A stretch of 64,000 bases of DNA. Source: an uncultured delta proteobacterium (GTDB lineage: Bacteria > Desulfobacterota > Binatia > UBA9968). The stretch covers positions 1,056,001 through 1,120,000 of the forward strand of contig CAVSHR010000004.1 in NCBI GenBank assembly GCA_963727625.1, in the 5' to 3' direction. The notes beneath the pieces are model-generated. The model was not told where the DNA came from and made no database searches. It saw nothing but the letters and a program-made list of their open reading frames with translations. Positions within the stretch are counted from its first letter, which is position 1, and each line of letters begins with the position of its first letter. The translations under genes and the position numbers were made by a program. Positions 22,367-40,595 of this stretch are shown here, in pieces.

Positions 22367-24204
22367 GATTCTGCTGAAAAACCCTCTTGGTATTTCGTCA
22401 TATTAATAGAATAAATGTTGACAATGGACGGAGTGGGCCTCAAGGTTTTTCCATGAGCGTGAAACCGATCGATGCACAGAGAAGCTTTTATCACACCGAC
22501 TATCTTGCTGGAAATCTGTTCGGTCCGGCCAACCGCTACCGGCTGTTTCGGGAAAAGATTTGGCCCAAGCTTTTGGAGCTTGCGCCTAAGCTGGAAGCGC
22601 TTTACTGCGCCGAGAACGGCCGGCCGCCGATCGATCCGGTGCTACTTTGCGGGGTGACGCTTCTCCAGTTTATGGAGAAAGTGGCGGACCGGGGCGCCAG
22701 CGAGCATGTTGTCTATCATCTGGGTTGGAAGTACGCGCTGGATTTGGAACTGGACTACGGCGGGTTTCATGCCACGGTGTTGGTTTATTTTCGCAATCGG
22801 TTGGAGGAGAAAACAGCCGAGCGGCTGATTTTTGACGGGGTGGTGGATTTATTGATCGAGCTGGGGTTGGTAAAGCGCAAGGGCAAGCAGCGGCTCGATA
22901 GCACCCATATCGTGGGATACGTCAAAGCGATGAGCTGGATGGAATGCGCGCTGGAGACGCTGCGTTTGGGGTTGGAAGATTTGGAATATGAAGCAGGAAT
23001 GAAAAAGCGCCCAGAGTTTTGGGACCGACTGTGGGAGTTTTATGTCGAGAGCCATCTGGATTGGCGGTTAAGCAAAACCGAGCAAGCCAACCGCCATCGG
23101 CAATGTGGGCAGGACATCACAGAGCTGCTGGAGTGGATCGATACAGAGAATCCCCAGCTCGCTGAACGTGAGGCGGTGAAACTGTTGCGGCGAGTCTTTG
23201 ACGAGCAGTTCGCAGTGGTCGAGGGAAAGCTTGAACTGGCCACCCAGCGGCCTTCTCGCGCGGTACAGAACCCCCATGATCCCGATGCCCATTATGCCGA
23301 TAAGAAGACTAAGCAATGGATCGGCTACAAAGTGCACGTGGCTGAGACGGTCGATCCCCAACAACCGATCAAGAAAAAAGGCGAGCCCGCCGAGCATTTC
23401 ATTACCGAGATATTCACTACTGAAGCGGCCCAAGACGAGATGGCCGGCTTAACCGAGGTGCTTAAAACAGAACAACAGCACCATGAGATTACACCCCAGG
23501 CGATGTACAGCGATGCCGGTTACGTCACCGAGCACACCTTAACGCAAGCGGAACAAAACGGCATCGAGTTATTAGGGCCGACGCGTCCCGACCCGCACAA
23601 GGGAGCGTACAATAGCGATGCATTCCATGTTGATGTCGAGAAGCGTCAGGCGGTTTGTCCCCAGGGTAACTTAAGCAGTCAATGTAGCCGCATCAAAGAT
23701 AATTACCAGGGAACCGAGTACTACCGCATCGAGTGGGCCAGTCAATGCGATAGCTGTCCTGTACAAAAGCAGTGTACGCATTCCAAGAACGGCCGGAGAA
23801 CTTTAGTCGTCGGGGTGCGCCACGATCTGGTGGAGCAGCGGCGCAGAGAAATGAAACAGAGTGGGTTCTCAAAGAGCATGCATCCGCGAAACGGCATCGA
23901 AGGGACTCACAGCGAGTTGGTGCGTGGGCACGCGATGAGACGGACGAAATATCGAGGCTTAAGCCGGGTCGGTCTATCGCACTATTTCATGGGCGCCGCG
24001 TGCAATGTGAAACGATACCTAAATCTGCTCGCATTCCAGATGAGAACGCCGGTTCTGAGCCCGGCTTAAGGGCTCGGGGCCGTTCATTTTACTGGCTATG
24101 GCAGCGTTGCAGGTGAAAATTTTTTTGTCGTAACACCATTTGGGGATCGACAGCGTTTGCTAACGGCGGTCGCAATTCAAATTGACGGGTTTTTCAGCAG
24201 AATC
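22367..24204 (+). mobile_element. IS1182-like insertion sequence
   Basis: Perfect 18-bp inverted ends GATTCTGCTGAAAAACCC / GGGTTTTTCAGCAGAATC; 6-bp target duplication GATTTC (22361-22366, 24205-24210). Confidence 0.9.
22453..24069 (+). CDS. IS1182-family DDE transposase
   Basis: NGRPPIDP, RLDSTH, GYKVHVAET, DAGY, CPQG...CDSCP...C, RNGIEG...YRGL. Confidence 0.9.
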   Translation: MSVKPIDAQRSFYHTDYLAGNLFGPANRYRLFREKIWPKLLELAPKLEALYCAENGRPPIDPVLLCGVTLLQFMEKVADRGASEHVVYHLGWKYALDLELDYGGFHATVLVYFRNRLEEKTAERLIFDGVVDLLIELGLVKRKGKQRLDSTHIVGYVKAMSWMECALETLRLGLEDLEYEAGMKKRPEFWDRLWEFYVESHLDWRLSKTEQANRHRQCGQDITELLEWIDTENPQLAEREAVKLLRRVFDEQFAVVEGKLELATQRPSRAVQNPHDPDAHYADKKTKQWIGYKVHVAETVDPQQPIKKKGEPAEHFITEIFTTEAAQDEMAGLTEVLKTEQQHHEITPQAMYSDAGYVTEHTLTQAEQNGIELLGPTRPDPHKGAYNSDAFHVDVEKRQAVCPQGNLSSQCSRIKDNYQGTEYYRIEWASQCDSCPVQKQCTHSKNGRRTLVVGVRHDLVEQRRREMKQSGFSKSMHPRNGIEGTHSELVRGHAMRRTKYRGLSRVGLSHYFMGAACNVKRYLNLLAFQMRTPVLSPA

Positions 24205-25155: not shown

Positions 25156-26644
25156 TTACGCTTTGGAGGCTCCAGCATTTAAATCTCCTGCAATCTCGGC
25201 AAACTGCGCTAGCGCTGCCTCCAGATCCTCCACTATCTCGGCGGCGATGATGTCGGGAGCCGGGAGATTCGCGGAGTCTTCGAGGGATTCGTCTTTGAGC
25301 CAGAAGATGTCGAGGTTGACCTTGTCGCGTTTGGCGAGGTCGTCGTAGGCGAAGCACTTGAAGCGCTCGCTCTCGGTCCGCTCGTGACGGTTCTCAGCGC
25401 TGTAGCAGGCGACGAAGTCGTCGAGGTCGGTGCGTTTAAGTTGGTTTTCCTTGAGCGTGAAGTGCTTGTTGGTCCGAAGATCGTAGATCCAGAGCTTTTC
25501 CGTCCATGGCCTTTCCTGCGCCGGTTTACGGTCGAAGAAAAGCACGTTCGCCTTTACGCCCTGGGCGTAAAAGATACCCGTCGGCAATCGCAGCAGCGTA
25601 TGCACGTCGGCCTGCTTGAGCAGTTCCCGCCTCACCGTCTCCCCCGCCCCGCCTTCGAACAGCACGTTGTCCGGCACGACGATGGCCGCTCGGCCATGCT
25701 GCTTGAGGATCGTAAATACGTGCTGGAGAAAGTTGAGCTGCTTGTTGCTTGTTGATGCCCAGAAGTCGTCGCGGTGGATCGTCAGGCTTTCCTTCTCCGC
25801 CTCGCCCTTTTCATTGACGATCGTGACGCTGCTCTTCTTGCCGAACGGCGGATTGGTCATCACCATTTCATAATTTTTGCCGCCCTGACTGCCGAGCGCA
25901 TCACGCACCTCGATCGGCACCTCGTCCGCCCCGTCCGCACTGATGCCGTGTAGCAGCATGTTCATGCAGCAAAGCCGCGCGACGCCGTCGACCAACTCGA
26001 CGCCGTAAAAGCGTATCGCTCGCCAGCTTGATCTTCTGTTCTCGGTCGAGTTGGTAATGCGCCGGATCTGAAAGATAGTTATACGCCGCCAGCAAGAACC
26101 CGCCGGTCCCGCAGGCGGGATCGCAGATGGTCATCTTCGGCTCGGGACGCATCACGTCGACGATCGCCGCGATCAACGGCCGTGGCGTAAAGTACTGTCC
26201 CGCGCCGCCCTTCACGTCCGCCGCGTTCTTCTCTAGCAGACCCTCATAAGCGTCGCCCTTCACGTCGGCGGACAACGCAGTCCACTGTTCTTTGTCAATT
26301 AGATCGACGATCAGACGGCGTAGCTTCGCCGGGTCTTGAATTTTATTCTGCGCCTTGCGAAAGATGACGCCGAGCATGCCCTTCTCCTTGCCGAGCGTCT
26401 CCAGCAGATGGCGATAATGAATTTCCAGCTCGTCGCCGTCCTTGGCTAGCAAGCTGGCCCAGTCGAAGCCTTTGGGAATGCGCGCAGGTTTGTTGAAAGG
26501 CGGCCGGCTCTGCTCATCCGCCATCTTGAGGAAAAGCAAAAACGTCAGCTGCTCGACATAGTCGCCGTACGACAGCCCGTCATCGCGCAAAATGTTGCAG
26601 TAGTTCCAGAGCTTCTGGACGAGTTGGTGAGATTGATCGGCCAT
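25156..26644 (-). pseudogene. hsdM: Type I RM methyltransferase HsdM with one frameshift near 26008 (possibly an assembly error)
   Basis: LVQKLWNYCN.LRDDG, GQYFTPR, DPACGTGGFL in the 5' ORF; NPPF, VPDNVLFEGG, YDLRTN in the 3' ORF. Confidence 0.9.
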
Positions 26645-26742
26645 GAGGACGTTACGTACTCCAGAATTTAAGCAGGGAAGTGAAAATAAATACGCGGTAC
26701 TGCCAAGAAGCCAAAAACACCAGGACGCGTAGCCCGCAATTA

Positions 26743-27789: not shown

Positions 27790-28114
27790 CGAGCTTGCCC
27801 TTCTCTTTGCCGAGCGTCTCCAGCAGATGGCGATAATGGATTTCCAGCTCGTCGCCGTCCTTGGCGAGCAAGCTGGCCCAATCGAAGCCTTTGGGAATGC
27901 GCGCAGGTTTATTGAACGGCGGCCGGCTCTGCTCATCCGCCATCTTGAGGAAAAGCAGAAACGTCAGCTGCTCAGACCCTGTCCTGAGCAGCGTCGAAGG
28001 ATAGTCGCCGCTTGCCTGCGCGTGGCGCGCAAGCAGGTACGACAGCCCGTCATCGCGCAGGATGTTGCAGTAGTTCCAGAGTTTTTGGACGAGTTGAGTG
28101 GACTGTTCAGGCAT
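27790..28114 (-). pseudogene. hsdM: hsdM 5' fragment B with two in-frame palindromic insertions
   Basis: LVQKLWNYCNILRDDGLSY[LLARHAQAS]GDY[PSTLLRTGS]EQLTF...LGKEKG. Confidence 0.9.
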
Positions 28115-28148
28115 TAGGATGAAGCAGGAGTCTTGCAGAGAGATCGAT

Positions 28149-29055: not shown

Positions 29056-29358
29056 TTACTTAGCGGGCACGTACCGATAATGCGTCTCCAACTCGTCGCC
29101 GTCCAGGCGCCTCAGGCTCTGCCAATCGACGCTCTTGGGAATCGGCGACGGCTTGTTGAATGGCGCCCGGCTCTGCTCGTCCACCATCTTGAGAAACAGC
29201 CGAAACGTCAACTGCTCAGAGCCTGTCCTGACCCATGCCGAAGGATAATCGCCGCTTGCCTGCGCGCGGCGCGCAAGCAGGTACGACAGCCCGTCATCGC
29301 GCAGGATGTTGCAGTAGTTCCAGAGTTTTTGAACGAGTTGAGTGGATTGATCAGCCAT
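29056..29358 (-). pseudogene. hsdM: hsdM 5' fragment C with two in-frame palindromic insertions
   Basis: MADQSTQLVQKLWNYCNILRDDGLSY[LLARRAQAS]GDY[PSAWVRTGS]EQLT...DGDELETHYR. Confidence 0.9.

Positions 29359-29774: not shown

Positions 29775-29775
<1 letters not shown>
29398..29775 (-). CDS. DUF5615 PIN-like toxin
   Basis: KIDEHLP...HD...LLTLDLDF. Confidence 0.85.
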
Positions 29776-30266
<491 letters not shown>

Positions 30267-30365: not shown

Positions 30366-30617
30366 AGTGCGTCTCCAGCTCGTCACCGTCCTTGGCTACA
30401 AGCTGGCCCAGTCGAAACCGTTGGGAATGGGAGCCGGTTTGCTAAACGGCGGCCTGCTCTGCTCATCCGCCATCTTGAGGAACAGCAGATACGTTAACTG
30501 CTCAGAGCCTGTGCTGAGCGCAGCCGAAGCATACTCGCCGTACGAAAACCCATCACCTCGGAACATGTTGCAATAATTCCAGGGTGCTTGAACGAACTGG
30601 TGAGAGGTCTCAGGCAT
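30366..30617 (-). pseudogene. hsdM: hsdM 5' fragment D (degraded, one palindromic insertion, internal stop)
   Basis: WNYCNMFRGDGFSYGEY[ASAALSTGS]EQLTYLLFLKMADEQ...DWASL*.KDGDELETH. Confidence 0.85.
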
Positions 30618-30627
30618 AGCGGCTAAA

Positions 30628-32340
30628 CTAGTTTTTGCTCTCTTTTATCGTTTTTAATTTCTGTTCTAAAGCCGTAATTAATGAGTCGATTGGACCACGG
30701 TGATGCTGGTTCACCGCGCTTGAAGGATTACCTTCAACGAGCTCCGCAATATCGCCCTTAACTTTCATTTCAACGTTATCTGTCCACAATTTGCCTTGGT
30801 TTTTAAAAATCAGTCGCATTCTATCCGACCACTTTCGATTACCTTTGAACTGCGGCGCTTCCGTGGACACACCGTATTTATTTTTTAACAGTGGCGAATA
30901 AAGTGTCTCGTTGTACAAGTCTTCAATTTCAGACTCGGATAAGCCGTTACGGCTAGCAAAAGTCACGTCAGCTTGTGTCGCAAGTCCTTCCCGTTCAGCC
31001 TTTTTAAATGCGCCGATACCCGAATTGTCGTAATCAAGAAAACAATGTGACATGCACATCGCTTCTCGGACCTGACCTAGCATATAGGTAAGATTGTTTC
31101 CCCCGAATAACGACTGAATGGCTAGGGACCTCTGATCCAACGAAGACTTCAGAGCTGGCGAGCCATGCTTAAGAAGCGCGCTAAAAGCGCGTTTGTCATC
31201 CTCTCCCTCAACAAGAAAAATTAATTCGGCATGTTGGAGATTGTCCGAGGCCCGAACGCCAAGAATATCGCGGATTTCCTTTATGTCTTTCGCTGGTACG
31301 GCCTTTTTTTGGTTGACGATCACGTTCGACTTGATACTTGTACGATCGACAAACAAAGGGCAGTGGGTTGTCATAATAACTTGATGCTTATCAGCGATTT
31401 CAGCAAGAACTAAACGGAGCTGATGAATGGCCGAAGGATGCAAATGAGATTCCGGTTCTTCTATCGTCAATATTAACTGGCGACCGAGCGCGCCACTTTC
31501 TGACGAGTGACGCATCAGGCTAAGTGCGGCGAGACTTTGAACACCATCCCCTTTCCGAGCCAAAAGGGTTGGCGTTCCATCATCTACAACTATGTCACAT
31601 GATCGCCTCAATGCTCGATATCTCGCTTCTTCTGATATGGTCACCCTTACGTTTCGTACGTTAGGTAGAAAAACACGAAGGGTCTCCGTGATGCTTTTGG
31701 AAATTTTATCTAAAACCGGAGCTTGAATCTTCGCGACTTCAGCAAGCGCCTTCTTGTATGCCGATTCCTCCTCGACCGGCTTGAGCTCTCGATCGACAAT
31801 TCCACTGACGATCGATTCAGCTTGATCGTACGTTCTCACGGAAGGAATGTAGGTAATGTTAATTCTCTTGGAAACAAATTGCGCAATGAGTTCATCTTTT
31901 TTTGACAACGCTGGGCCACCCGGCCCCTTTTTTACAACTTTAAAACTCGGATCGCCTTTGCCGAGCGATAGTTGAATCGGCAGCGATCCATTGAGCGAAC
32001 TCTTTACCTCGTCATAAAATTCATCAATTTCTCCGGCCGTGAGCTCGAACTCCAATTTGAAAACAGATTCCCCACTGGCGTGCTTGGATTGGAGAGAAAT
32101 TGGATAGTCGCGCTCCCAATTATACCCTCCCAGATCGCGTCTTGGGGTTTGAACTCTACCACGACGAATTTTGTACACTCTCAAATCGCGTAGGACCTCG
32201 AGGCCGGAGACAAGAGCCTTTAGGATATTGGATTTCCCCTCGTTGTTGGGACCGAGCAGCACCGTGGACTGCCGAATCGGAAGTCGATAGGCTCTAGTGA
32301 TGCTCCTGTAATTGGTGACTGAAAAGGATACGAGTTTCAT
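30628..32340 (-). CDS. OLD-family ATP-dependent endonuclease (ABC-type ATPase plus TOPRIM)
   Basis: Walker A GPNNEGKS, KGDGVQS, Walker B/D-loop IEEPESHLHP, TTH switch, TOPRIM LVEGEDD...DYD; ATGA overlap with the hsdS stop. Confidence 0.85.
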   Translation of the reverse strand: MKLVSFSVTNYRSITRAYRLPIRQSTVLLGPNNEGKSNILKALVSGLEVLRDLRVYKIRRGRVQTPRRDLGGYNWERDYPISLQSKHASGESVFKLEFELTAGEIDEFYDEVKSSLNGSLPIQLSLGKGDPSFKVVKKGPGGPALSKKDELIAQFVSKRINITYIPSVRTYDQAESIVSGIVDRELKPVEEESAYKKALAEVAKIQAPVLDKISKSITETLRVFLPNVRNVRVTISEEARYRALRRSCDIVVDDGTPTLLARKGDGVQSLAALSLMRHSSESGALGRQLILTIEEPESHLHPSAIHQLRLVLAEIADKHQVIMTTHCPLFVDRTSIKSNVIVNQKKAVPAKDIKEIRDILGVRASDNLQHAELIFLVEGEDDKRAFSALLKHGSPALKSSLDQRSLAIQSLFGGNNLTYMLGQVREAMCMSHCFLDYDNSGIGAFKKAEREGLATQADVTFASRNGLSESEIEDLYNETLYSPLLKNKYGVSTEAPQFKGNRKWSDRMRLIFKNQGKLWTDNVEMKVKGDIAELVEGNPSSAVNQHHRGPIDSLITALEQKLKTIKESKN

Positions 32341-32462: not shown

Positions 32463-33978
32463 CCCTAAACCGACAATAATTTTGGCGTTCACGCGGCCGA
32501 TTTGAGTTTGTCTTCGATGGATTCGATCCATTTTTGCACTGGTGGAGCTACCGAGAAACGCAGCACCGAGTAGCCTTGAGGTTTGACGATGCGTGCCGGT
32601 TGATGAATCAGCTTAAAACGGATCGTTTTCAAACTATGGAGCAAATAACTGCAAGTTCGTTTGCGCGATCTGGGCTTGGGCGTAGCTAAAGTCTGGAGCT
32701 GAAAGTTTCTCACCAGGTTGTGCCCCAACACCGAGATTTGCTGCCAGGCCGAGTTCGCTCCGTAGTGGCGGGTGGGCACCACATCCAAAGCCCATTGCCC
32801 TTTGAGCTCGGCGAAGGTTTTCTCTTGGGCCCCCCGCCCCGCCATGAAATTCCATAACGCTGCAGCACCTAAATCGAGATTGGTAGTCACCGCGGAGTAC
32901 TCAAAGTAGCCATCCTCTGGGTCGAACAGATCGAGCTGGTAGTTCTTCTTGCTCTGGTGGTGAACAGGTTTTCGGTAAACCACCACGCGCAGCGTCTTTT
33001 CCCAGGCCTCCACATACAGTGAGACTTCGAACCATCCCATGCCGTCTCCTAGTCGATGCCAGCGTTGACGCTCGCGGACGATCGGCACCAGGCCTAACCA
33101 TTTCATAAACGGCACTTTGATCGCGTAGCGCGCCTTTCTGCGCTCCAACAAATGGATAATCTCTCGCTGGAAAAACGCCCCGTCCATGCGAAACTCTAAC
33201 GGCAACGCCCTTCCCAGCCGTGCTCTGACATCGTCGATCAGCTCGCCTAAGAATGCCTGTGCACCTTTGGAGTCATGGACATTGCCGGGCCGATTCTTGA
33301 CTCGCAAGATGTGGCCGGTCTGGGCCAGATGGGCCAGGATCGGATAGTACGAAGGATTCTTGCGATGATGTGGATTAAATCCCCGAAACGCCCACGCCAC
33401 ACTGGCTCCGGTCGTAATCACACTGCCGTCGATATCCAAAGTCAGACGTGCCAACGACTGCTTCTCGATCGCCTCATAGACGATCTGGCTGTTGATCTCC
33501 ACCAACGCTCTGAGCGACTTGTGGGTAAACCGCTTGAGCCAGCGCGCCACGCTGCGCTCGCGCGGTAGGCGCAACAAGCCGCAAAACCGCTTCACCAACG
33601 GATCGTCGCAAACGTAGTTCAGATGATCGAGCCGGCGTCCGCCCACTAAAATCAAAACCACGATCACCAAGACCATGTCGATGCAGCGATAGTCTCCACC
33701 GATCTCGTATCGCCCAAACTCCCTGCTCACTCTACGTCCCAGGTCGATCAGCGCTATGTAGCGCCGCATCAACTCCAAACCGCCGAACGCCGTGATGTCT
33801 TGAGCCGCAAACTCGATCTTCAAAAAACTCTTGCACGATGAATAAAAATCCGCTCTATTCAATCTCACTTAGAGTGGCCTCCTTGCAGGACGATTCAGTC
33901 GGTGTGGTAACTGCTTTATCTCCCGCAACCGTAGGCCATTTCAAGTTCTATCTGCTCTCTTTTATTGTCGGATTAGGG
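32463..33978 (-). mobile_element. IS1380-family element inside hsdS
   Basis: Ends CCCTAAACCGACAATA and TATTGTCGGATTAGGG; TTAA duplication at 32459-32462 and 33979-33982. Confidence 0.9.
32489..33868 (-). CDS. IS1380-family DDE transposase
   Basis: ITAFGGL, LDIDGS, SYYP, RPGNVH, RMDGAF, RGAQEKTFAELK, YGANSAW. Confidence 0.9.
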   Translation of the reverse strand: MRLNRADFYSSCKSFLKIEFAAQDITAFGGLELMRRYIALIDLGRRVSREFGRYEIGGDYRCIDMVLVIVVLILVGGRRLDHLNYVCDDPLVKRFCGLLRLPRERSVARWLKRFTHKSLRALVEINSQIVYEAIEKQSLARLTLDIDGSVITTGASVAWAFRGFNPHHRKNPSYYPILAHLAQTGHILRVKNRPGNVHDSKGAQAFLGELIDDVRARLGRALPLEFRMDGAFFQREIIHLLERRKARYAIKVPFMKWLGLVPIVRERQRWHRLGDGMGWFEVSLYVEAWEKTLRVVVYRKPVHHQSKKNYQLDLFDPEDGYFEYSAVTTNLDLGAAALWNFMAGRGAQEKTFAELKGQWALDVVPTRHYGANSAWQQISVLGHNLVRNFQLQTLATPKPRSRKRTCSYLLHSLKTIRFKLIHQPARIVKPQGYSVLRFSVAPPVQKWIESIEDKLKSAA

Positions 33979-34601
33979 TTAATAGGCGCTCGACTTCGGG
34001 AACAATCCGTTTCTGCTCAACGTTCGGCGGAACTGGAACCGGAAGCCTCCGGAAGTCTTCGACATTGACACCTCGAAGTGCCACGCCTCGCGTTTCTCCG
34101 CTGAGCCAACGTTGGCAAAGATCCGATCGAATCGCCCAGACAACGTAATTTCTGACGACATCCTTCGCAATTGGCGCACGCATTACGTGCTGCGTAATGT
34201 TTCCCCCGGCTAGTTCTGGTGGAACAACAGCCACGCGACCAATCGTTCCGTCTTTCGAAATTAAAATATCCCCACTTGCCAGTGTTGCGCGAGCGAACTT
34301 TGCAGCGCGTTCTTTAGAGGTTCGACGAAGATTAGAAATATCAATTCGTCCATCTTTCATCTCAGTGACTCTGACGTACGGGACACCACCATTTATGTGG
34401 GGGCCTGGCTTAATGATTCCATAAATTATGGGCCGATTTGCTTGCCCGATTTGCTCCAGCGTTGCCCACGCCCACCCCCCCGGCAGCGACGGCAGATTCG
34501 ATGTATCCGGTTTCTGCGGCTCTTTGTACTTCCCCTTCCCAGTCCATTTCTGGCGCCGCTCGTCAAGGATGCGGTCGAGAAGTTGGGCGCCGGTTTCGTA
34601 G

Positions 34602-34883
34602 CCTGCCTGCCGCGCCCGCCCCGCCGCTATCTCGCGCCGAATCCATTTTCGGCCAAACCCAGTCTTAAGCCATTTTTCCCTTGCGACACCTTCTTCTCGC
34701 GATGTGTATTCTTCGTAATGAACGATCGACACTGGCTTGTGTTGGCTTGTCCAATCTGCGGCCTGCCCGGCTAAGTGCTCTTTCCAACGCTTTTGAAGAT
34801 CCTGGGTTTGGCCGATGTAAACGCTGTCGTTGTCACATCGAATGGCATAGACAAAGAAGACCCCGGGGCGCGGCGCAGGCAGG
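34602..34883 (-). mobile_element. In-frame GIY-YIG endonuclease insertion in hsdS bounded by inverted repeats
   Basis: 282 bp (94 codons); FVYAIRCDNDSVYIGQTQDLQKRWKEH...REKWLK; ends CCTGCCTGC and GCAGGCAGG. Confidence 0.85.
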
Positions 34884-35579
34884 GTGCGGCCTTCTTGGCG
34901 GGCGAGTTCGGCTTCGGTGGGGACGAGTTTGCCTTCGCAGGCGGCTTTGAGGACGGCGGCGCGGTAGCGTTTGAGGTTGGCCTGCACGCGCCGCAAGCCC
35001 GCGACTCCCGCCTCCAGCCGCGTGAATTGCTTCTCGATCTCCGCGACGATCTGGTGACTGTTACGTCAGGAGGCGAATCGGAACCTGCAAGTGCCTCAAT
35101 TCTTGTGCGCTAACGTTTTGCCGCGCGAACGCCGTTACCGAGACGATACTGCAAGAATTGCCGATCAGCAGAGCGGAGAACAAGTGCCCACGCAAAATAT
35201 CGGAGAGGCAATTCTCGGCTTAAGCAGCAACGAAGCCCGGATTCGATGATTTTGTGAGTCGGTTCTGCCTCAATCAGGCGGACCGAGAGCAACTTTCCCA
35301 TAGTGAGCCAGACATCCCGATGAGAAAGAATCACCCTCGCTGGGCCACGAAGTATCGGCAACTCTTATATAAAACGATGCGGCGACACGATTCGCGCGGC
35401 AACGTCATACATCGTCCTACATCCCAGGTCGGACTGCCTTATTAGGGGACACCTTCTGGCCTGTAATCACTGCTCTTAAACGCGTAGCCATTCCGGACTT
35501 TGAGAATGGCGCTCCGCAACAGCGATCTTGTCAAGAGGTTGCCCACCGCTTGGCAATCGCGGACTATCAGACATCTCAC

Positions 35580-38500
35580 TCACGCTGCCAACACCTCGTT
35601 GAGTTCATCGAGCAACTTCGGAAGTTCGTCACCAAACAATTGATGTGCTTTTCCCAATCCTCCCCGCTGGCTGAAGGGCGCGTAGTTGAAATCGTTTGGC
35701 TCAATGCTGATCGCAGTTGCGATATGGTCGCGGATAAGTTCCAGCCAGGCCAACTGCTCCGGCGTAAATGTTAAAGTAGCAGAGGCGTCTCGCCTCTGTG
35801 TTTCCTCCGACGCCGGAGCAGACGCACTTCGCGTGCGCTGTTCGTCCGAAATAGTGGCAGAGCCGTCTCGGCTCTGTTCTTCGTCCGATCCCAGCGGCGG
35901 GACGCCGCTGCCACTTTGTTTCCTTACCAGCCACTGCTTAAACCCTTGATTGACCGTTTGGGCGAAACGGCTCAAGAACCTGCTCGCGTTCGAGCGCGAA
36001 GCGGACGAGGGAGACGAGGTCGGCGAAGCGGCCGGCTTGGGAACGGCCTTTGACCTTCTTCGGCGCGACGGCGGCGAAGGCGTCCCAGAGGCGGTCTTCG
36101 GTCCAGGCGGCGTGCTGTTCGCGGAGTTTTTTCTCCAGCTCCTTGAGCATCGGTTCGGTGAGGCGGTGACGGTACGGGCGGCTGTAAAGAAGCTGCAGCG
36201 CGGTGATCTCCGCTTTGTGCTTTTCGATGTAGTCGCGGAACGACTTCGTCAATTCATCGGCGTTTTGCGTCGTCTGCTGACTCGCGCCGGCGAAGAGCAC
36301 GCGGTCGCGGGTGATCACGTCGATCACCTGCTCGCTGGTCTGGTGGACCTTTATCAATAGCTGGCGCAGCGCGGGATTGCCCGCCAGCGGCGCGACAGCT
36401 TCCTTTGCCAAAGTGGCAGCGGCGTCCCGCCGCTGCTTCTCCGTGGGCTCAAGATAGCTGGGGTTCTCAGCGCCCCGGTGTGCGCGGATATATTCGCGGA
36501 ACTTTTCCATACTGGCTGGGCTTCGGACGATGTGGTCGAAAGATTCCTTTTGCCAGACCGCGATGGCTTTCTCGGACGGAGGCGGGACGCCTCCGCCACT
36601 CTCTTCGGATGCGGATTTTAAAGTGGCAGAGGCGTCTCGCCTCTGATTCTGGAATTCAGTCAAGCGGCGGGACGCCGCTTCCACTTTTAAGATTTCATGC
36701 GCCGTGAAGGACTTCCAAGAATGGAGGATTTCAGACAACCGATGGTCGCCCAATGGGGAGACCAGGACGTGAACATGATTGGACGCCACGGCAAATTCAT
36801 CCAGCTGGTAGCGATCGCCGTCAAAGTGCCGGAGAGCGTTTTCCATTAACTGTTTCACTTCCGGCAGAGCTAAAACGCAAGAACCGGTTCCGGCATCGAG
36901 CCACTGCTGAATGCGTTGGGGAAAGCGCTCGTAATATTCCATTCGCGCCACCGCGTCATGGGGCTCCGGGTGTTGGGCAAGCCACTGGTCTCTTTCCGTT
37001 CTCCATTCCGCAAGCTTTTCTAGCGGCAGCGAATCGGCGAGCCGAAAGGTCACAAAGTAAGTCGCGCCGTCCTGCCGCCAGTGCGGCAGATCACCCGTTA
37101 GGAACGCCACGGGTTCATTGGGATCAAAGTAATTGAGAGTGGCAGCGGCGTCCCGCCGCTGTTGTTCGAGAACCAAGAGGCGGGACGCCGCTGCCACTTT
37201 GTCCGGATTCACTGCTCCGAGAAGCTGCTGCGCGATCTCGCAGAGGGTCTGGCCCTGGGCCGTGGTCCGGACTTCCTTTGCGAGCGCTTCGTCGAAGCGT
37301 TTCTCCAACCGAACCAGCCGTCCGGCGAGGCTTTCGAGCACTTCGGGCTCACGATTGCCGAGGGCGACGGCGTCAAGCAGCTTGTCGAAGCTCACCGTGC
37401 GCTTGGTCTCCAGCGGGCGGGAATCGGTCAGGTCCTGCTCGCAGACACCAACGGCGTCGATGATGACAAAGCGGTTCTTGCGCTTGATGCCGGGATTGAC
37501 CTGTTCCATTTCCGTTTCCGATATTACCCGTACTCCCCTGCCCTTCATCTGCTCGAAAAAGCCGCGCGACTTGACCGAGCGCATGAAAAAGACGATCTCC
37601 AGCGGCTTTACGTCGGTGCCGGTGGCGATCATGTCGACGGTGACGGCGATGCGCGGGTTGTAGCTGTTGCGAAAGGCCTGAAGAATCTGATCCGGAGAGA
37701 GATTGGACACTTTCTTCCAGACGACTTCTTCTATTTCTTTTCCATCGGCTCCGGTTTTCTTCTCGACATCGCGCACGAAGCCGGTGCGGTAGGTTATTTT
37801 CTGGCAGAAGTCGTTGCCTTTGTCGAAGACCTCCCGGCAGATGCGCACGATATCGTCGGCATGGGAGTCGTCCTTGGCGAAGATCAGCGTCTTGGGCACC
37901 TGATAGCGGCCCGGAAAGATCTCCGTGAAAAGTTTATCGCGAAAGGTCTGTAGCACCGTGCGAATCTGATCCTCGGCGACCACGGCGCGGTCGAGCTGAG
38001 CGGCGTCGTACCGGAAGTCTTCGTCGAGTTGCTCCCAGCGTTTCTTGCGCGTCTGGCGGTCGCGCTTGTCGACATAGAACCCGGCGTCGATCTTGGCGCC
38101 TTGAGAGGTGACCTCGGTCTGGATGCGATAGACGTCGTAATTGACGTTGACGCCGTCGGCCACCGCCCGCTCGTGGTTGTATTCCATGACCAGATTCTGA
38201 TTGAAAAAGCCGAAGGTCTGCTTGGACGGCGTCGCAGTAAGGCCGATCAGATGGGCGTCGAAATACTCCAGCACCTGGCGCCAGAGGTTGTAGATCGAAC
38301 GGTGGCACTCGTCGGTGATGATGATGTCGAAGGTGTCGATGGGGAAGGCCGGGTTATATTCGATCGGCGGGGCTTCTTTGAAGAGCGATTCCAAGCCCTG
38401 GACCGAGCGCTCGTCGGCTTCCTCGTCGAGCTCCTGCCCTTTGAGCATGGAATAAAGCCGCTGGATGGTGCCGATGCAAACTCGGGCGCTGGTATCGAGC

Positions 38501-39297
38501 GTGTTCGAAGCCAAGCGCTGGATGATGTACTCCTCGTGGAACTTATAGTTGTTGTAGGGCGACACGTATTGCTGAAACTCTTTGAGCGTCTGCTTGCCCA
38601 GGTTGCCGCGATCGACCAGGAAGAGAATGCGCTTGGCGCCGGCGAACTTGATCAGCCGGTAGCTCAAGACAATCGCGAGCAGCGTCTTGCCGGAGCCGGT
38701 GGCCATCTGCACCAGCGCGCGCGGCCGGTTGTCGCGCAGCGACTGCTCGATGTTCATGATTGCCTGGGGCTTGGGCGGCCAGATGTCGTCGATCAGCGGC
38801 GGCATGTGCTGGATGCGGCTTAAGAAGTTACCGCTGCGTCCGGCGTAATCGGCGATCGTTTCGACCGGCTCGGGCGACGCGTAGTTTTCCACCCAGCCGA
38901 GCAGAGCGTCAGGACGGTGATACGCGAACACGTTGCGGCTCCGCGGTACGGGATCGAGACGGTTGGTGAAGCGCGTCTCGGTGCCGGTGGACTCGTAGCT
39001 GAACGGCAGCGGCGCGCGCCAGGCGGGGATGCCGAACGGCACGCCTTTAACGTACTTCTCTGACTGCTCCTCGACGCCGGTAAGCGAATGGCCGGCGGGT
39101 TTGGCTTCGATGGTACCGATCGCTTTGCCGTCGACGAACAGCGTGTAATCGGGCTCGCCGGTCTTAAACGTCAGCTCGCGCACGGCAACGCCGCGCGACG
39201 CGGCGAGATTGACGCCGTTCTTGTCCTGGACAACCCAACCGCAAGAGCCGATTAACGCGTCGATTTCTATTCGGGCTAGTTCCTCGGGATCGGGCAT
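35580..39297 (-). CDS. hsdR: Type I RM restriction subunit HsdR; frameshift near 35965 separates the C-terminal tail
   Basis: PDY.LFVDGKAIGTIEAK, MATGSGKT, DECHRSIY, GLTATP, TGTD, QMKGRG; tail FTPEQLAWL...PFSQRGG. Confidence 0.9.
35774..35916. repeat. Cluster of three REP hairpins within the hsdR 3' end
   Basis: GTAGCAGAGGCGTCTCGCCTCT, GTGGCAGAGCCGTCTCGGCTCT, and inverted AGCGGCGGGACGCCGCTGCCAC. Confidence 0.85.
36411..37198 (-). mobile_element. In-frame RAYT (Y1/HUH) domain with six REPs embedded in hsdR
   Basis: LPHWRQDGATYFVTFRLADSLP...NHVHVL...HSWKSFTA...WQKESFDHIVR...EYI; REP consensus GTGGCAGCGGCGTCCCGCCGCT. Confidence 0.88.
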
Positions 39298-40038: not shown

Positions 40039-40299
40039 CTACTTCTCTAGACCAAGTCGCCGGCGAAGTTCGGCAGCTGGAACGGCACCTTCTTTTTTTA
40101 ACCGTGCCCTGGAGCGTTTAATGATTTTTAAAAACTTGCGGTTGGTGCTGAGAGCCACAGTTTCTTCATCGACGTTTCGGATGGGTACGACCGCGGCGAA
40201 CGGCTTGCCCTGCTTAACAACAATCACCGGGTCTTTTCTCGCCTTTTCGGCGTATTCCGACAGCGGTGCTGTGGCTTTTTTGAGTTCGACCCTTGTCAT
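40039..40299 (-). CDS. Phd/YefM family antitoxin
   Basis: ATAPLSEY...DPVIVVKQGKPFAAVV. Confidence 0.8.
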   Translation of the reverse strand: MTRVELKKATAPLSEYAEKARKDPVIVVKQGKPFAAVVPIRNVDEETVALSTNRKFLKIIKRSRARLKKEGAVPAAELRRRLGLEK

Positions 40300-40595
40300 A
40301 GCTTGATTCCTTCTCCCCCAATTCGGACTCGCTCTCTTTCCTTGACGCCAACCGCCAGAATGGTCACTGTTGGAAGAGATTCGTCGCTCACTTCATAATA
40401 CACTCTCAACTCGCCAATGCGAAGTTCCCACGGTGCTATCGGGTTGGGCCGCATTGGCTTTCTGTTTCGCGTCTCTACCGCAGGCTGACTAAGCAATTGT
40501 CGATCAACGGTGTCGAGTACAATTCTTTACTGACGCGCCGTGAGCCCCCGCAGGTGATCCTCCGCCTCTGGAGAGTATTGGATGATGTAGGCCAA
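40296..40595 (-). pseudogene. RelE/ParE family toxin with an internal TAA at codon 23
   Basis: MAYIIQYSPEAEDHLRGLTARQ*RIVLD...WELRIGELRVYYEV...ILAVGVK. Confidence 0.8.

Follow-up and report, generated by a model that had tools for sequence, protein, structure and literature searches.

A complete transposase of the RAYT (REP-associated tyrosine transposase) kind is translated in frame together with its repetitive extragenic palindromic (REP) hairpins inside HsdR, a subunit encoded by a type I restriction-modification (R-M) operon, in a 64,000-nucleotide stretch of contig CAVSHR010000004.1 from an uncultured delta proteobacterium (this stretch is the window, to whose positions all coordinates refer). 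The insert occupies the linker between the motor and the C-terminal domain of HsdR. Within an hsdR family that spreads horizontally, this cassette is a presence/absence polymorphism, and REPs of its type hardly occur outside the R-M operon, where they take up lineage-specific in-frame positions in hsdR, hsdS, and hsdM. It probably represents a self-contained, non-splicing REP-RAYT element (a 'REPtron', composed of a REPIN, which is a pair of inverted REPs, a RAYT with an internal REPIN, and a single REP) that rides on a horizontally mobile R-M operon.

The main frame of hsdR (35938-39297, minus strand) encodes 1119 amino acids (aa) comprising an HSDR_N nuclease, a superfamily 2 (SF2) motor, the linker with the cassette, and the first part of the EcoEI_R_C domain. 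Between helicase and EcoEI_R_C the stop-free frame crosses the RAYT (aa 721-954), and the linker stretch from aa 700 to aa 964 reads through NYFDP, LPHW (aa 737), YFVTFRL (aa 747), NHVHV (aa 840), WQKESFDH (WQKESF at aa 915), and EYIRAH (aa 935). The passage through LPHW, YFVTFRL, NHVHV, WQKESF, and EYI without a stop had been recognised in an earlier, sequence-only reading of this DNA and is confirmed in the 1119-aa frame. The same holds for the borders given there, because 36411-37198 matches the cassette as it extends from the REP at 36413-36434 to the REP at 37176-37197. The N-terminal part of the RAYT (36685-37138, minus strand; aa 721-871) contains NYFDP, LPHW, YFVTFRL, and NHVHV, with the HUH codons of H841 at 36775-36777 and H843 at 36769-36771. 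The C-terminal part (36436-36577, minus strand) contains WQKESFDH and YIRAH, in which the Tyr at the catalytic position, Y936, is encoded at 36490-36492 and H940 at 36478-36480. Thus, the HUH motif H841-V-H843 and the Tyr in the C-terminal helix that characterize Y1/HUH enzymes are both present, and judged by their position these residues would be catalytic.

Profile and structure comparisons point in the same direction. Taken in isolation, the domain scores marginally above the gathering cut-off of the Pfam family Y1_Tnp (PF01797; 24.1 bits against a cut-off of 23, E 4.3e-5), and within the whole HsdR it falls below (21.2 bits). The NCBIfam model REP_Tyr_transpos (NF047646) matches with 42.8 bits (E 4.5e-11), short of the equivalog cut-off of 80 bits, which is not reached by the stand-alone relatives P0124, P0142, and P0121 either (69.7, 45.6, and 41.2 bits). 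An AlphaFold2 model of aa 690-975 (pLDDT 86.5, pTM 0.76) retrieves ISDra2 TnpA, TnpA_REP (4er8), and IS608 TnpA as best Foldseek matches with probability 1.00 and E-values of 7e-5 to 1e-3, and all of the top 30 matches are IS200/IS605 or REP transposases (TM-scores by target 0.46-0.62). A profile of 62 relatives, searched against the sequences of the Protein Data Bank (PDB), likewise has ISDra2 TnpA and Escherichia coli TnpA_REP among its matches (2xm3, 1.8e-4; 4er8, 2.3e-4). A Y1_Tnp scan and a structure prediction had both been proposed as checks in the sequence-only reading, and both favour a transposase, the former by its narrow score. Because motifs, profile matches, the AlphaFold2 model, and the Foldseek search agree, the embedded domain is, by sequence and predicted fold, a complete Y1/HUH transposase of the RAYT kind; the sequence-only reading was right in naming a RAYT, but had taken the domain to be near-complete.

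The YIRAH that replaces the usual YIxxNP, also pointed out there, is real. HVH, WQ, and Y-I-x-x-H are kept in all 32 HsdR-embedded copies, and the change from N-P to His is thus a conserved variant rather than damage. In the wider RAYT clade (62 sequences, matched by a regular expression) the residue four positions after the Tyr is N in 32 sequences, H in 16, and another residue in 3 (Q in 2, Y in 1), with no match in the remaining 11. H940 occupies this Y+4 position, which we take to supply a metal ligand in IS608 TnpA. In hsdR the RAYT has no start or stop codon of its own, and the transposase would therefore be made only as an internal domain of HsdR. No second copy was detected by tblastn in the 6.62-Mb assembly. 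The embedded RAYT is thus single-copy in its genome, yet not stand-alone.

The REPs belonging to this domain are copies of the 22-mer GTGGCAGCGGCGTCCCGCCGCT, which occurs six times at up to three mismatches (0.00 expected from 100 shuffles), at 35893(-), 36413(+), 36623(+), 36663(-), 37139(+), and 37176(-); two degenerate copies with four mismatches start at 35776(+) and 36578(-). Each unit consists of a GTGG foot, an 8-bp stem, and a 3-nt loop, and the copies are predicted to form stable DNA hairpins or REPIN pairs (z-scores -4.6 to -9.4; pairs folded as REPINs, -7 to -9). The 5' border of the cassette is formed by REPIN A (37139-37197), in which the inverted REPs 37139-37160 (+) and 37176-37197 (-) are translated as VAAASRLLVLEQQRRDAAAT and fold with -31.6 kcal/mol (z -9.4). 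In gene order it is followed by the N-terminal part of the RAYT, REPIN B (36623-36684) inside the RAYT, the degenerate REP C (36578-36599, minus strand; four mismatches, translated GGGVPPP), the C-terminal part of the RAYT, and REP D (36413-36434, plus strand; translated QRRDAAAT) at the 3' border. Homologues have a REPIN at the same position as REPIN B. The domain is thus bracketed by REPIN A and REP D and interrupted by REPIN B, and the hairpins carry the 5' GT[AG]G foot typical of RAYT-associated REPs. This agrees with the hairpins that the sequence-only reading had seen bracketing and interrupting the domain and translated as VAAASR and QRRDAAAT. A second cluster of REPs follows the host C-terminal domain toward the 3' end of hsdR (35776-35914). 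It is made up of REP E (35893-35914, minus strand), an inner hairpin, and REP F (35776-35797, plus strand, four mismatches), and is translated as SGSGVPPL..QSRDGSAT..QRRDASAT. The site of this cluster is also filled in the homologues P0004, P0020, P0022, P0044, P0079, and P0110. Depending on frame and strand, REP DNA is read as VAAASRR, GSGVPPL, RRDAAAT, or SGGTPLP, and the recurring peptides arise because the same REP DNA is read in different frames and on different strands.

The distribution of these REPs is narrow. In the genome of the window (6.62 Mb) all six copies with up to three mismatches lie inside hsdR. Five genomes with filled hsdR alleles were scanned at up to two mismatches, with a control pattern that gave zero hits everywhere. 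The R-M locus holds 9 of the 10 REPs in G301, all seven in G302, and all four in G303, and the R-M contig of G305 holds 19 of 24. The embedded RAYT is the sole member of its family in G000, G301, G302, and G305. High-copy dispersal over the genome, as is characteristic of RAYT-associated REPs, was not observed: 6 copies are present here and 4-24 in the other filled genomes, mostly in the R-M locus. Within the phylum of the window (301 genomes) the REP occurs in 3 genomes and the RAYT in 11, and the two REPs of one genome (G101) lie on either side of a RAYT that is embedded in a DUF1156-type methylase. The sites differ among lineages. Five tandem copies occupy the motor region of HsdR in one lineage (L060/P0110), N-terminal copies are found in another (L064), and the C-terminal site is filled in some alleles and empty in others. 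These differences indicate that REPs were inserted after the lineages had split. The five tandem REPs belong to an allele from Kiritimatiellia (L060 9476-9617; P0110 aa 313-353) and are read in frame as repeated ..QSGSGVSPL..QSRDGSATI.

Comparison with other hsdR genes revealed both filled and empty forms of the linker. The window HsdR has at least 8000 homologues at E ≤ 0.001, the best 120 of which were compared. Many of these best homologues are 1127-1264 aa long and align over 99-100% of the window HsdR, and several contain Y1_Tnp. The same cassette is found at the same linker position in 18 homologues (58-86% identity), and adjoining empty alleles reach about 90% identity. Counting one genome per species, the RAYT is present in 15 of 79 related hsdR loci. 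The filled loci span Betaproteobacteria, Verrucomicrobiota, Kiritimatiellia, and Desulfobacterota-like metagenome-assembled genomes (MAGs), and the titles of their records name Sulfuriferula (two cultured strains, one complete genome), Thiobacillus, Sulfurimicrobium, Limisphaerales, Chthoniobacterales, Kiritimatiellia, a Verrucomicrobia MAG, and Syntrophobacter-like MAGs. Thirteen of the 14 filled frames that were extracted reach the normal C-terminus of the family, and the 14th ends at the end of its contig. In the complete genome of Sulfuriferula sp. GW1 the operon is intact (hsdR, hsdS, an Mrr-like gene, one unknown gene, and hsdM), and REPINs lie in frame in hsdR, hsdS, and hsdM. A tree of the host part of HsdR, built from 107 sequences of at least 880 aa drawn from the 120 homologues and the window, contains 22 filled and 85 empty alleles; within three clades filled alleles are dispersed among empty alleles, and two clades at the base are filled throughout. 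Peptides of the REP type without a RAYT occur in 4 of the 85 empty alleles, once at the linker site. In two other loci of this hsdR family, from a cyanobacterium (L094:4666-5574) and an Acidobacteriota MAG (L051:5965-6570), the RAYT is a different one (28-34% identical) and occupies a frame of its own, inside hsdR or immediately before it. In these cases the association of a RAYT with hsdR would have arisen independently.

Sequence divergence was also compared between the parts of the filled genes. Where dS is measurable, the ratio of nonsynonymous to synonymous substitution rates (dN/dS) of the RAYT is 0.06 for the pair L031/L045, 0.08 for L053/L055, and 0.16-0.20 among other Sulfuriferula pairs. 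For distantly related pairs the proportion of nonsynonymous differences (pN) in the RAYT is 0.10-0.30, with synonymous differences (pS) saturated at 0.8-0.9. At REP D, pS is 0-0.27 in pairs whose host parts show a pS of 0.33-0.64, and filled loci from different phyla still contain the 22-mer at up to four mismatches. The RAYT is thus shown, at the level of sequence comparison, to be under purifying selection, and the REPs to be conserved as DNA.

Embedding in frame is not peculiar to HsdR. Searching 1.8 billion representative sequences with the RAYT yielded 4767 relatives, 405 of them below 1e-30. Among the best 150 of these, with flank lengths estimated from the matched ranges, at least 100 additional residues are present on both sides of the domain in 35, only before it in 20, only after it in 9, and on neither side in 86. 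A Pfam scan of 44 of the 150, chosen as long ones, identified 14 as R-M proteins (type IIG enzymes resembling Eco57I/MmeI, HsdS, and an HsdR tail) and one as carrying DUF1156. Five are proteins of DNA repair or replication (PriA, RecG, XseA, a DinG-like helicase, and DprA), 3 are leucyl- or valyl-tRNA synthetases (LeuRS/ValRS), 9 are other enzymes, one has TSP3 repeats, and 11 have no host family. A Mur ligase, dehydrogenases, and deaminases are also among the hosts. Nine sequences of the clade, six long host proteins and three short forms, were inspected. In XseA and the Mur ligase, peptides of the HsdR-REP type stand on both sides of the RAYT domain, and RecG has a repeat of about 40 residues on either side; in LeuRS, PriA, and MVD only short peptides beside the domain resemble these, and they are at most candidates for REP derivation. 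Two of the short forms start near the conserved YFD motif, which indicates that stand-alone forms exist too, and the third, P0121, has REP-type peptides before the domain. Judged from these sequences, in-frame embedding is a property of the RAYT clade, the same clade occurring in many unrelated proteins. The sequence-only reading had considered a mobile domain in a tolerant site. The occurrence of the clade in frame in many unrelated proteins fits this view. In hsdR, however, the cassette is not a recent hop but old, mostly co-inherited, and spread across phyla.

Several known systems resemble this arrangement in part. Inteins with homing endonucleases are selfish in-frame inserts in DNA-handling enzymes, which are polymorphic in presence or absence and expressed through the host gene. 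The HsdR cassette shares the in-frame position in a DNA-handling enzyme, the presence/absence polymorphism, and expression through hsdR, but contains neither a Hint domain nor splice-junction residues, and the insert therefore presumably stays in the mature protein. IStrons combine an IS200/IS605-type transposase with a group I intron, whose ribozyme removes the element from the RNA. Here, too, an element with a Y1 transposase sits inside a gene without killing it, although no ribozyme family was found at the HsdR cassette. Another such system is that of the RAYT/TnpA_REP transposases with their REPs and REPINs, such as E. coli TnpA_REP (PDB 4er8; Nunvar, 2010; Ton-Hoang, 2012; Messing, 2012). 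As far as the accessible text of these publications describes them, they share with the embedded domain the Y1/HUH fold, the HUH motif and C-terminal Tyr, flanking hairpins with a 5' GT[AG]G foot, and a single copy per genome. In contrast to those enzymes, the embedded copy does not stand alone but is translated inside HsdR, its REPs are few and confined to one operon whereas known REPs are dispersed in tens to hundreds, Y-I-x-x-H replaces Y-I-x-x-N-P, and the score remains below the NCBIfam equivalog cut-off. Among the described RAYTs, subclass 2.4 (Quentin et al., 2018, PMC6006769), which corresponds to Group 4 (Bertels et al., 2017, PMC5581495), is similar. According to the portions of the text available, it has NH[IFV]H, WQ, and YIxNNP motifs and REPs in frame between HUH and Tyr, and is scattered over many phyla (PMC6006769). 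The embedded domain has NHVH, WQ, and, in REPIN B, an in-frame REPIN between HUH and Tyr; it differs in its YIRAH as against YIxNNP and in that the known genes stand alone, the likeness being one judged by motifs.

In-frame palindromic repeats as such are familiar. Intragenic REPs and Rickettsia palindromic elements add 20-30 residues to their host proteins, which frequently act in DNA replication and repair (Di Nocera et al., 2013, PMC3733652, in the part of the article available). The HsdR REPs are likewise palindromic repeats in frame in coding genes; they differ in clustering within a single operon and in being accompanied by their transposase, which is also in frame. In the passages available, RAYTs are portrayed as single-copy, stand-alone, domesticated transposases that cannot replicate selfishly (Bertels, 2017, PMC5581495), and 'unexpectedly long proteins' were set aside as fusions or errors (Quentin et al., 2018, PMC6006769). 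A full-text literature search, outside whose coverage most subscription journals lie, returned no publication that describes either the translation of a RAYT as part of a host protein or a REP-RAYT system belonging to an R-M operon. A whole RAYT clade occurs in frame and under selective constraint inside other genes, which means that many coding sequences must have been invaded by the RAYT gene itself. A nuclease domain of about 230 residues can evidently be accommodated in strongly constrained proteins such as aminoacyl-tRNA synthetases or PriA, and annotators should be cautioned that 'long' Y1_Tnp proteins are not errors. With its one RAYT and its 4-24 REPs within a single operon, the HsdR case forms a compact, closed system and is present in cultured Sulfuriferula. 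Such a system would allow REP mobilization and its cis-preference to be measured directly.

If the cassette is a REP-RAYT element that travels with the operon, the domain may still bind, cut, or join its own GTRG-footed hairpins on single-stranded DNA, and new REP copies would be seeded mainly in cis. Only in-frame, stop-free copies would then survive, since the host genes belong to an R-M system that is costly to lose, and the element could persist by hitch-hiking on this mobile and hard-to-lose operon. Homologous recombination between hsdR alleles would exchange the filled and empty forms of the linker.

Some observations weigh against this reading. No activity, excision, or insertion event has been seen, and the sole public sequencing run that contains any part of the stretch (RNA, share 0.06) has a single 165-nt contig, identical to 35743-35907 and thus to the REP cluster in the 3' part of hsdR; the frameshift described below and the RAYT domain lie outside it. 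The restriction of REPs to the R-M locus is not absolute, as in one filled genome (G304) 11 of 17 REPs lie outside and 6 inside. A clean transposition footprint was not found. The closest empty allele, L025, is 87% identical at the nucleotide level on the 5' side of the site and 92% on the 3' side, and in the filled allele the REPIN starts directly 3' of GACAAAGT. In L025, about 10 native residues of the EAKAKEGKD type stand in place of the cassette (REPIN and RAYT), and 8 (DLQTAQAK) in place of REP D, which in the filled allele replaces this native stretch of empty alleles at equal length. Because native residues are replaced at both places, neither form can be derived from the other by simple excision or insertion, and clean cut-and-paste was rejected. 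The empty alleles that the sequence-only reading had asked for thus exist, but they are not the filled allele minus the cassette. Furthermore, the similarities of RAYT and host part mostly track each other (Pearson 0.79 over 496 pairs, with outliers in both directions) and nearest neighbours mostly agree, which led us to reject frequent re-invasion of the linker site by unrelated RAYTs. Within hsdR, the behaviour of the cassette is closer to that of a resident domain than to that of a hopping element. We read it as an old cassette that is mostly co-inherited and is swapped with the empty linker through recombination between hsdR alleles. Its long retention under purifying selection fits a host function equally well. 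Finally, the G+C content of third codon positions (GC3) is lower in the RAYT (0.59-0.73) than in flanking hsdR (0.75-0.90) in all 15 filled genes, from the window and the extracted loci, and confounds the comparison of pS. Because of this difference, the higher pS of the RAYT was dropped as proof of a separate history.

An alternative is that the module has been domesticated, with the RAYT giving the type I motor an additional nuclease or joining head specific for single strands, or serving as a device that acts on the REP hairpins in hsdR, hsdS, and hsdM to regulate or rearrange the operon. The catalytic residues retained in 32 of 32 copies and the low dN/dS of the RAYT would suit such a role, as would co-inheritance of the cassette with hsdR across phyla, the intact operon of a cultured isolate, the fixed place of REPs in the central region of HsdS and in HsdM, and the bias of the clade toward R-M and other DNA enzymes (14 R-M, one DUF1156, and 5 repair or replication proteins among 44 hosts). 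However, most close relatives are empty (85 of 107) with filled alleles interspersed among them, REP positions vary by lineage, and the clade also resides in proteins to which a DNA nuclease would be of no obvious benefit (LeuRS, ValRS, a Mur ligase, dehydrogenases, and deaminases). We consider domestication unlikely. A more far-reaching proposal is that the R-M operon runs a private, working REP-RAYT system, in which the HUH domain of HsdR cuts or joins REP hairpins in hsdR, hsdS, and hsdM and so switches, varies, or repairs the operon, or cuts single-stranded invaders; more generally, the RAYT clade would provide the first known case of a transposase that lives in host proteins, including the essential LeuRS and PriA, as an intein-like domain without splicing. 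This we regard as rather doubtful.

At the opposite extreme, the cassette could be an inert relic, an old insertion that is now a mere tolerated spacer and here lies within a decaying R-M locus. Relative to its close relatives L025 and L021, the assembled hsdR has one extra base around 35968 (GAGCCGTTTCGCCC against GAGCC-TTTTGCCC), a +1 frameshift by which the last ~120 residues of EcoEI_R_C fall into a second frame (35580-35975, minus strand; 131 aa, EcoEI_R_C positions 99-162). In addition, hsdM occupies two overlapping frames rather than one (25901-26644 and 25156-25995, minus strand), an insertion sequence (IS) is situated between hsdS and the next gene, and the genome of the window has no REP outside hsdR and no second RAYT. 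In the related MAG locus L021, however, hsdM likewise consists of two overlapping frames, and the frameshifts of the window may therefore be assembly errors; the operon may show either decay around an intact cassette or faulty assembly. Purifying selection on the RAYT, the nucleotide-level conservation of REPs across lineages, and the intact RAYT frame of the window copy with all its motifs also argue against a relic, which we judge to be quite improbable. The frameshift, the 3' REP cluster, and the confinement of the REPs to the R-M operon did not figure in the sequence-only reading, whose statement that intein ends are lacking holds. An intein, an intron, another spliced element, or an artefact of assembly or gene calling could be suspected from an in-frame insert with empty alleles in a DNA-handling enzyme, as this is the pattern of inteins. 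Yet a Pfam scan of HsdR gave no match to a Hint or intein family, the junction residues V701 and L963/A964 do not provide the required Cys/Ser ... His-Asn-Cys/Ser/Thr, and the same architecture recurs in independent assemblies including complete isolate genomes. No ribozyme or intron family was detected in 35400-37800, where only miRNA-like hairpins matched below threshold. A spliced element was ruled out by the lack of an intron or ribozyme family and of intein features, and explanations of this group as a whole are very remote. A non-splicing REP-RAYT element carried by a mobile R-M operon is thus the reading that we prefer.

The host gene itself is a type I hsdR of the EcoEI/EcoAI kind. Pfam identifies HSDR_N, ResIII/DEAD, Helicase_C, and the start of EcoEI_R_C in the frame 35938-39297, so that the nuclease, the SF2 motor, and the EcoEI_R_C tail are present, the tail continuing in the second frame, and hsdS and hsdM lie nearby. 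Type I R subunits are the top NCBIfam matches, with scores below the equivalog cut-offs (291 vs 729 bits). The translation also contains what we take to be a PD...(D/E)xK-like stretch, a GSGKT motif, and a DECH motif. Downstream, hsdS is located at 33962-34996 (minus strand), and a single frame from 35056 to 33965 is homologous to the HsdS of a relative. A GIY-YIG nuclease domain is embedded in frame in the conserved central region of HsdS, at about 34661-34858 (minus strand; Pfam 7.8e-15). The HsdS of L021 is devoid of this stretch, and Sulfuriferula sp. GW1 has a REPIN in frame there (..TEAER / insert / YETGAQLL..). This region seems to be another place in the operon that tolerates in-frame passengers.

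Between hsdS and hsdM lie a gene for an AAA_15/AbiEii-like ATPase (30628-32340) and a DUF433 gene (29775-30197). Four stretches on the minus strand (26327-26647, 27797-28117, 29122-29358, and 30372-30623) are 58-66% similar to the first ~100 residues of the HsdM-region protein of a relative, and are repeated HsdM_N-like modules between hsdS and hsdM. Another frame change in the hsdM region is visible around 25376 in the tblastn alignment. Two DDE transposase genes are located in and beside the R-M locus at 32489-33868 (minus strand) and 22387-24069 (plus strand), which belong to DDE_Tnp_1_4 and to DDE_Tnp_1_6 with DUF772, respectively. Upstream of hsdR, a pair of small genes at 40039-40496 (minus strand), with a weak match to the Phd/YefM antitoxin family below the cut-off, is possibly a toxin-antitoxin pair.

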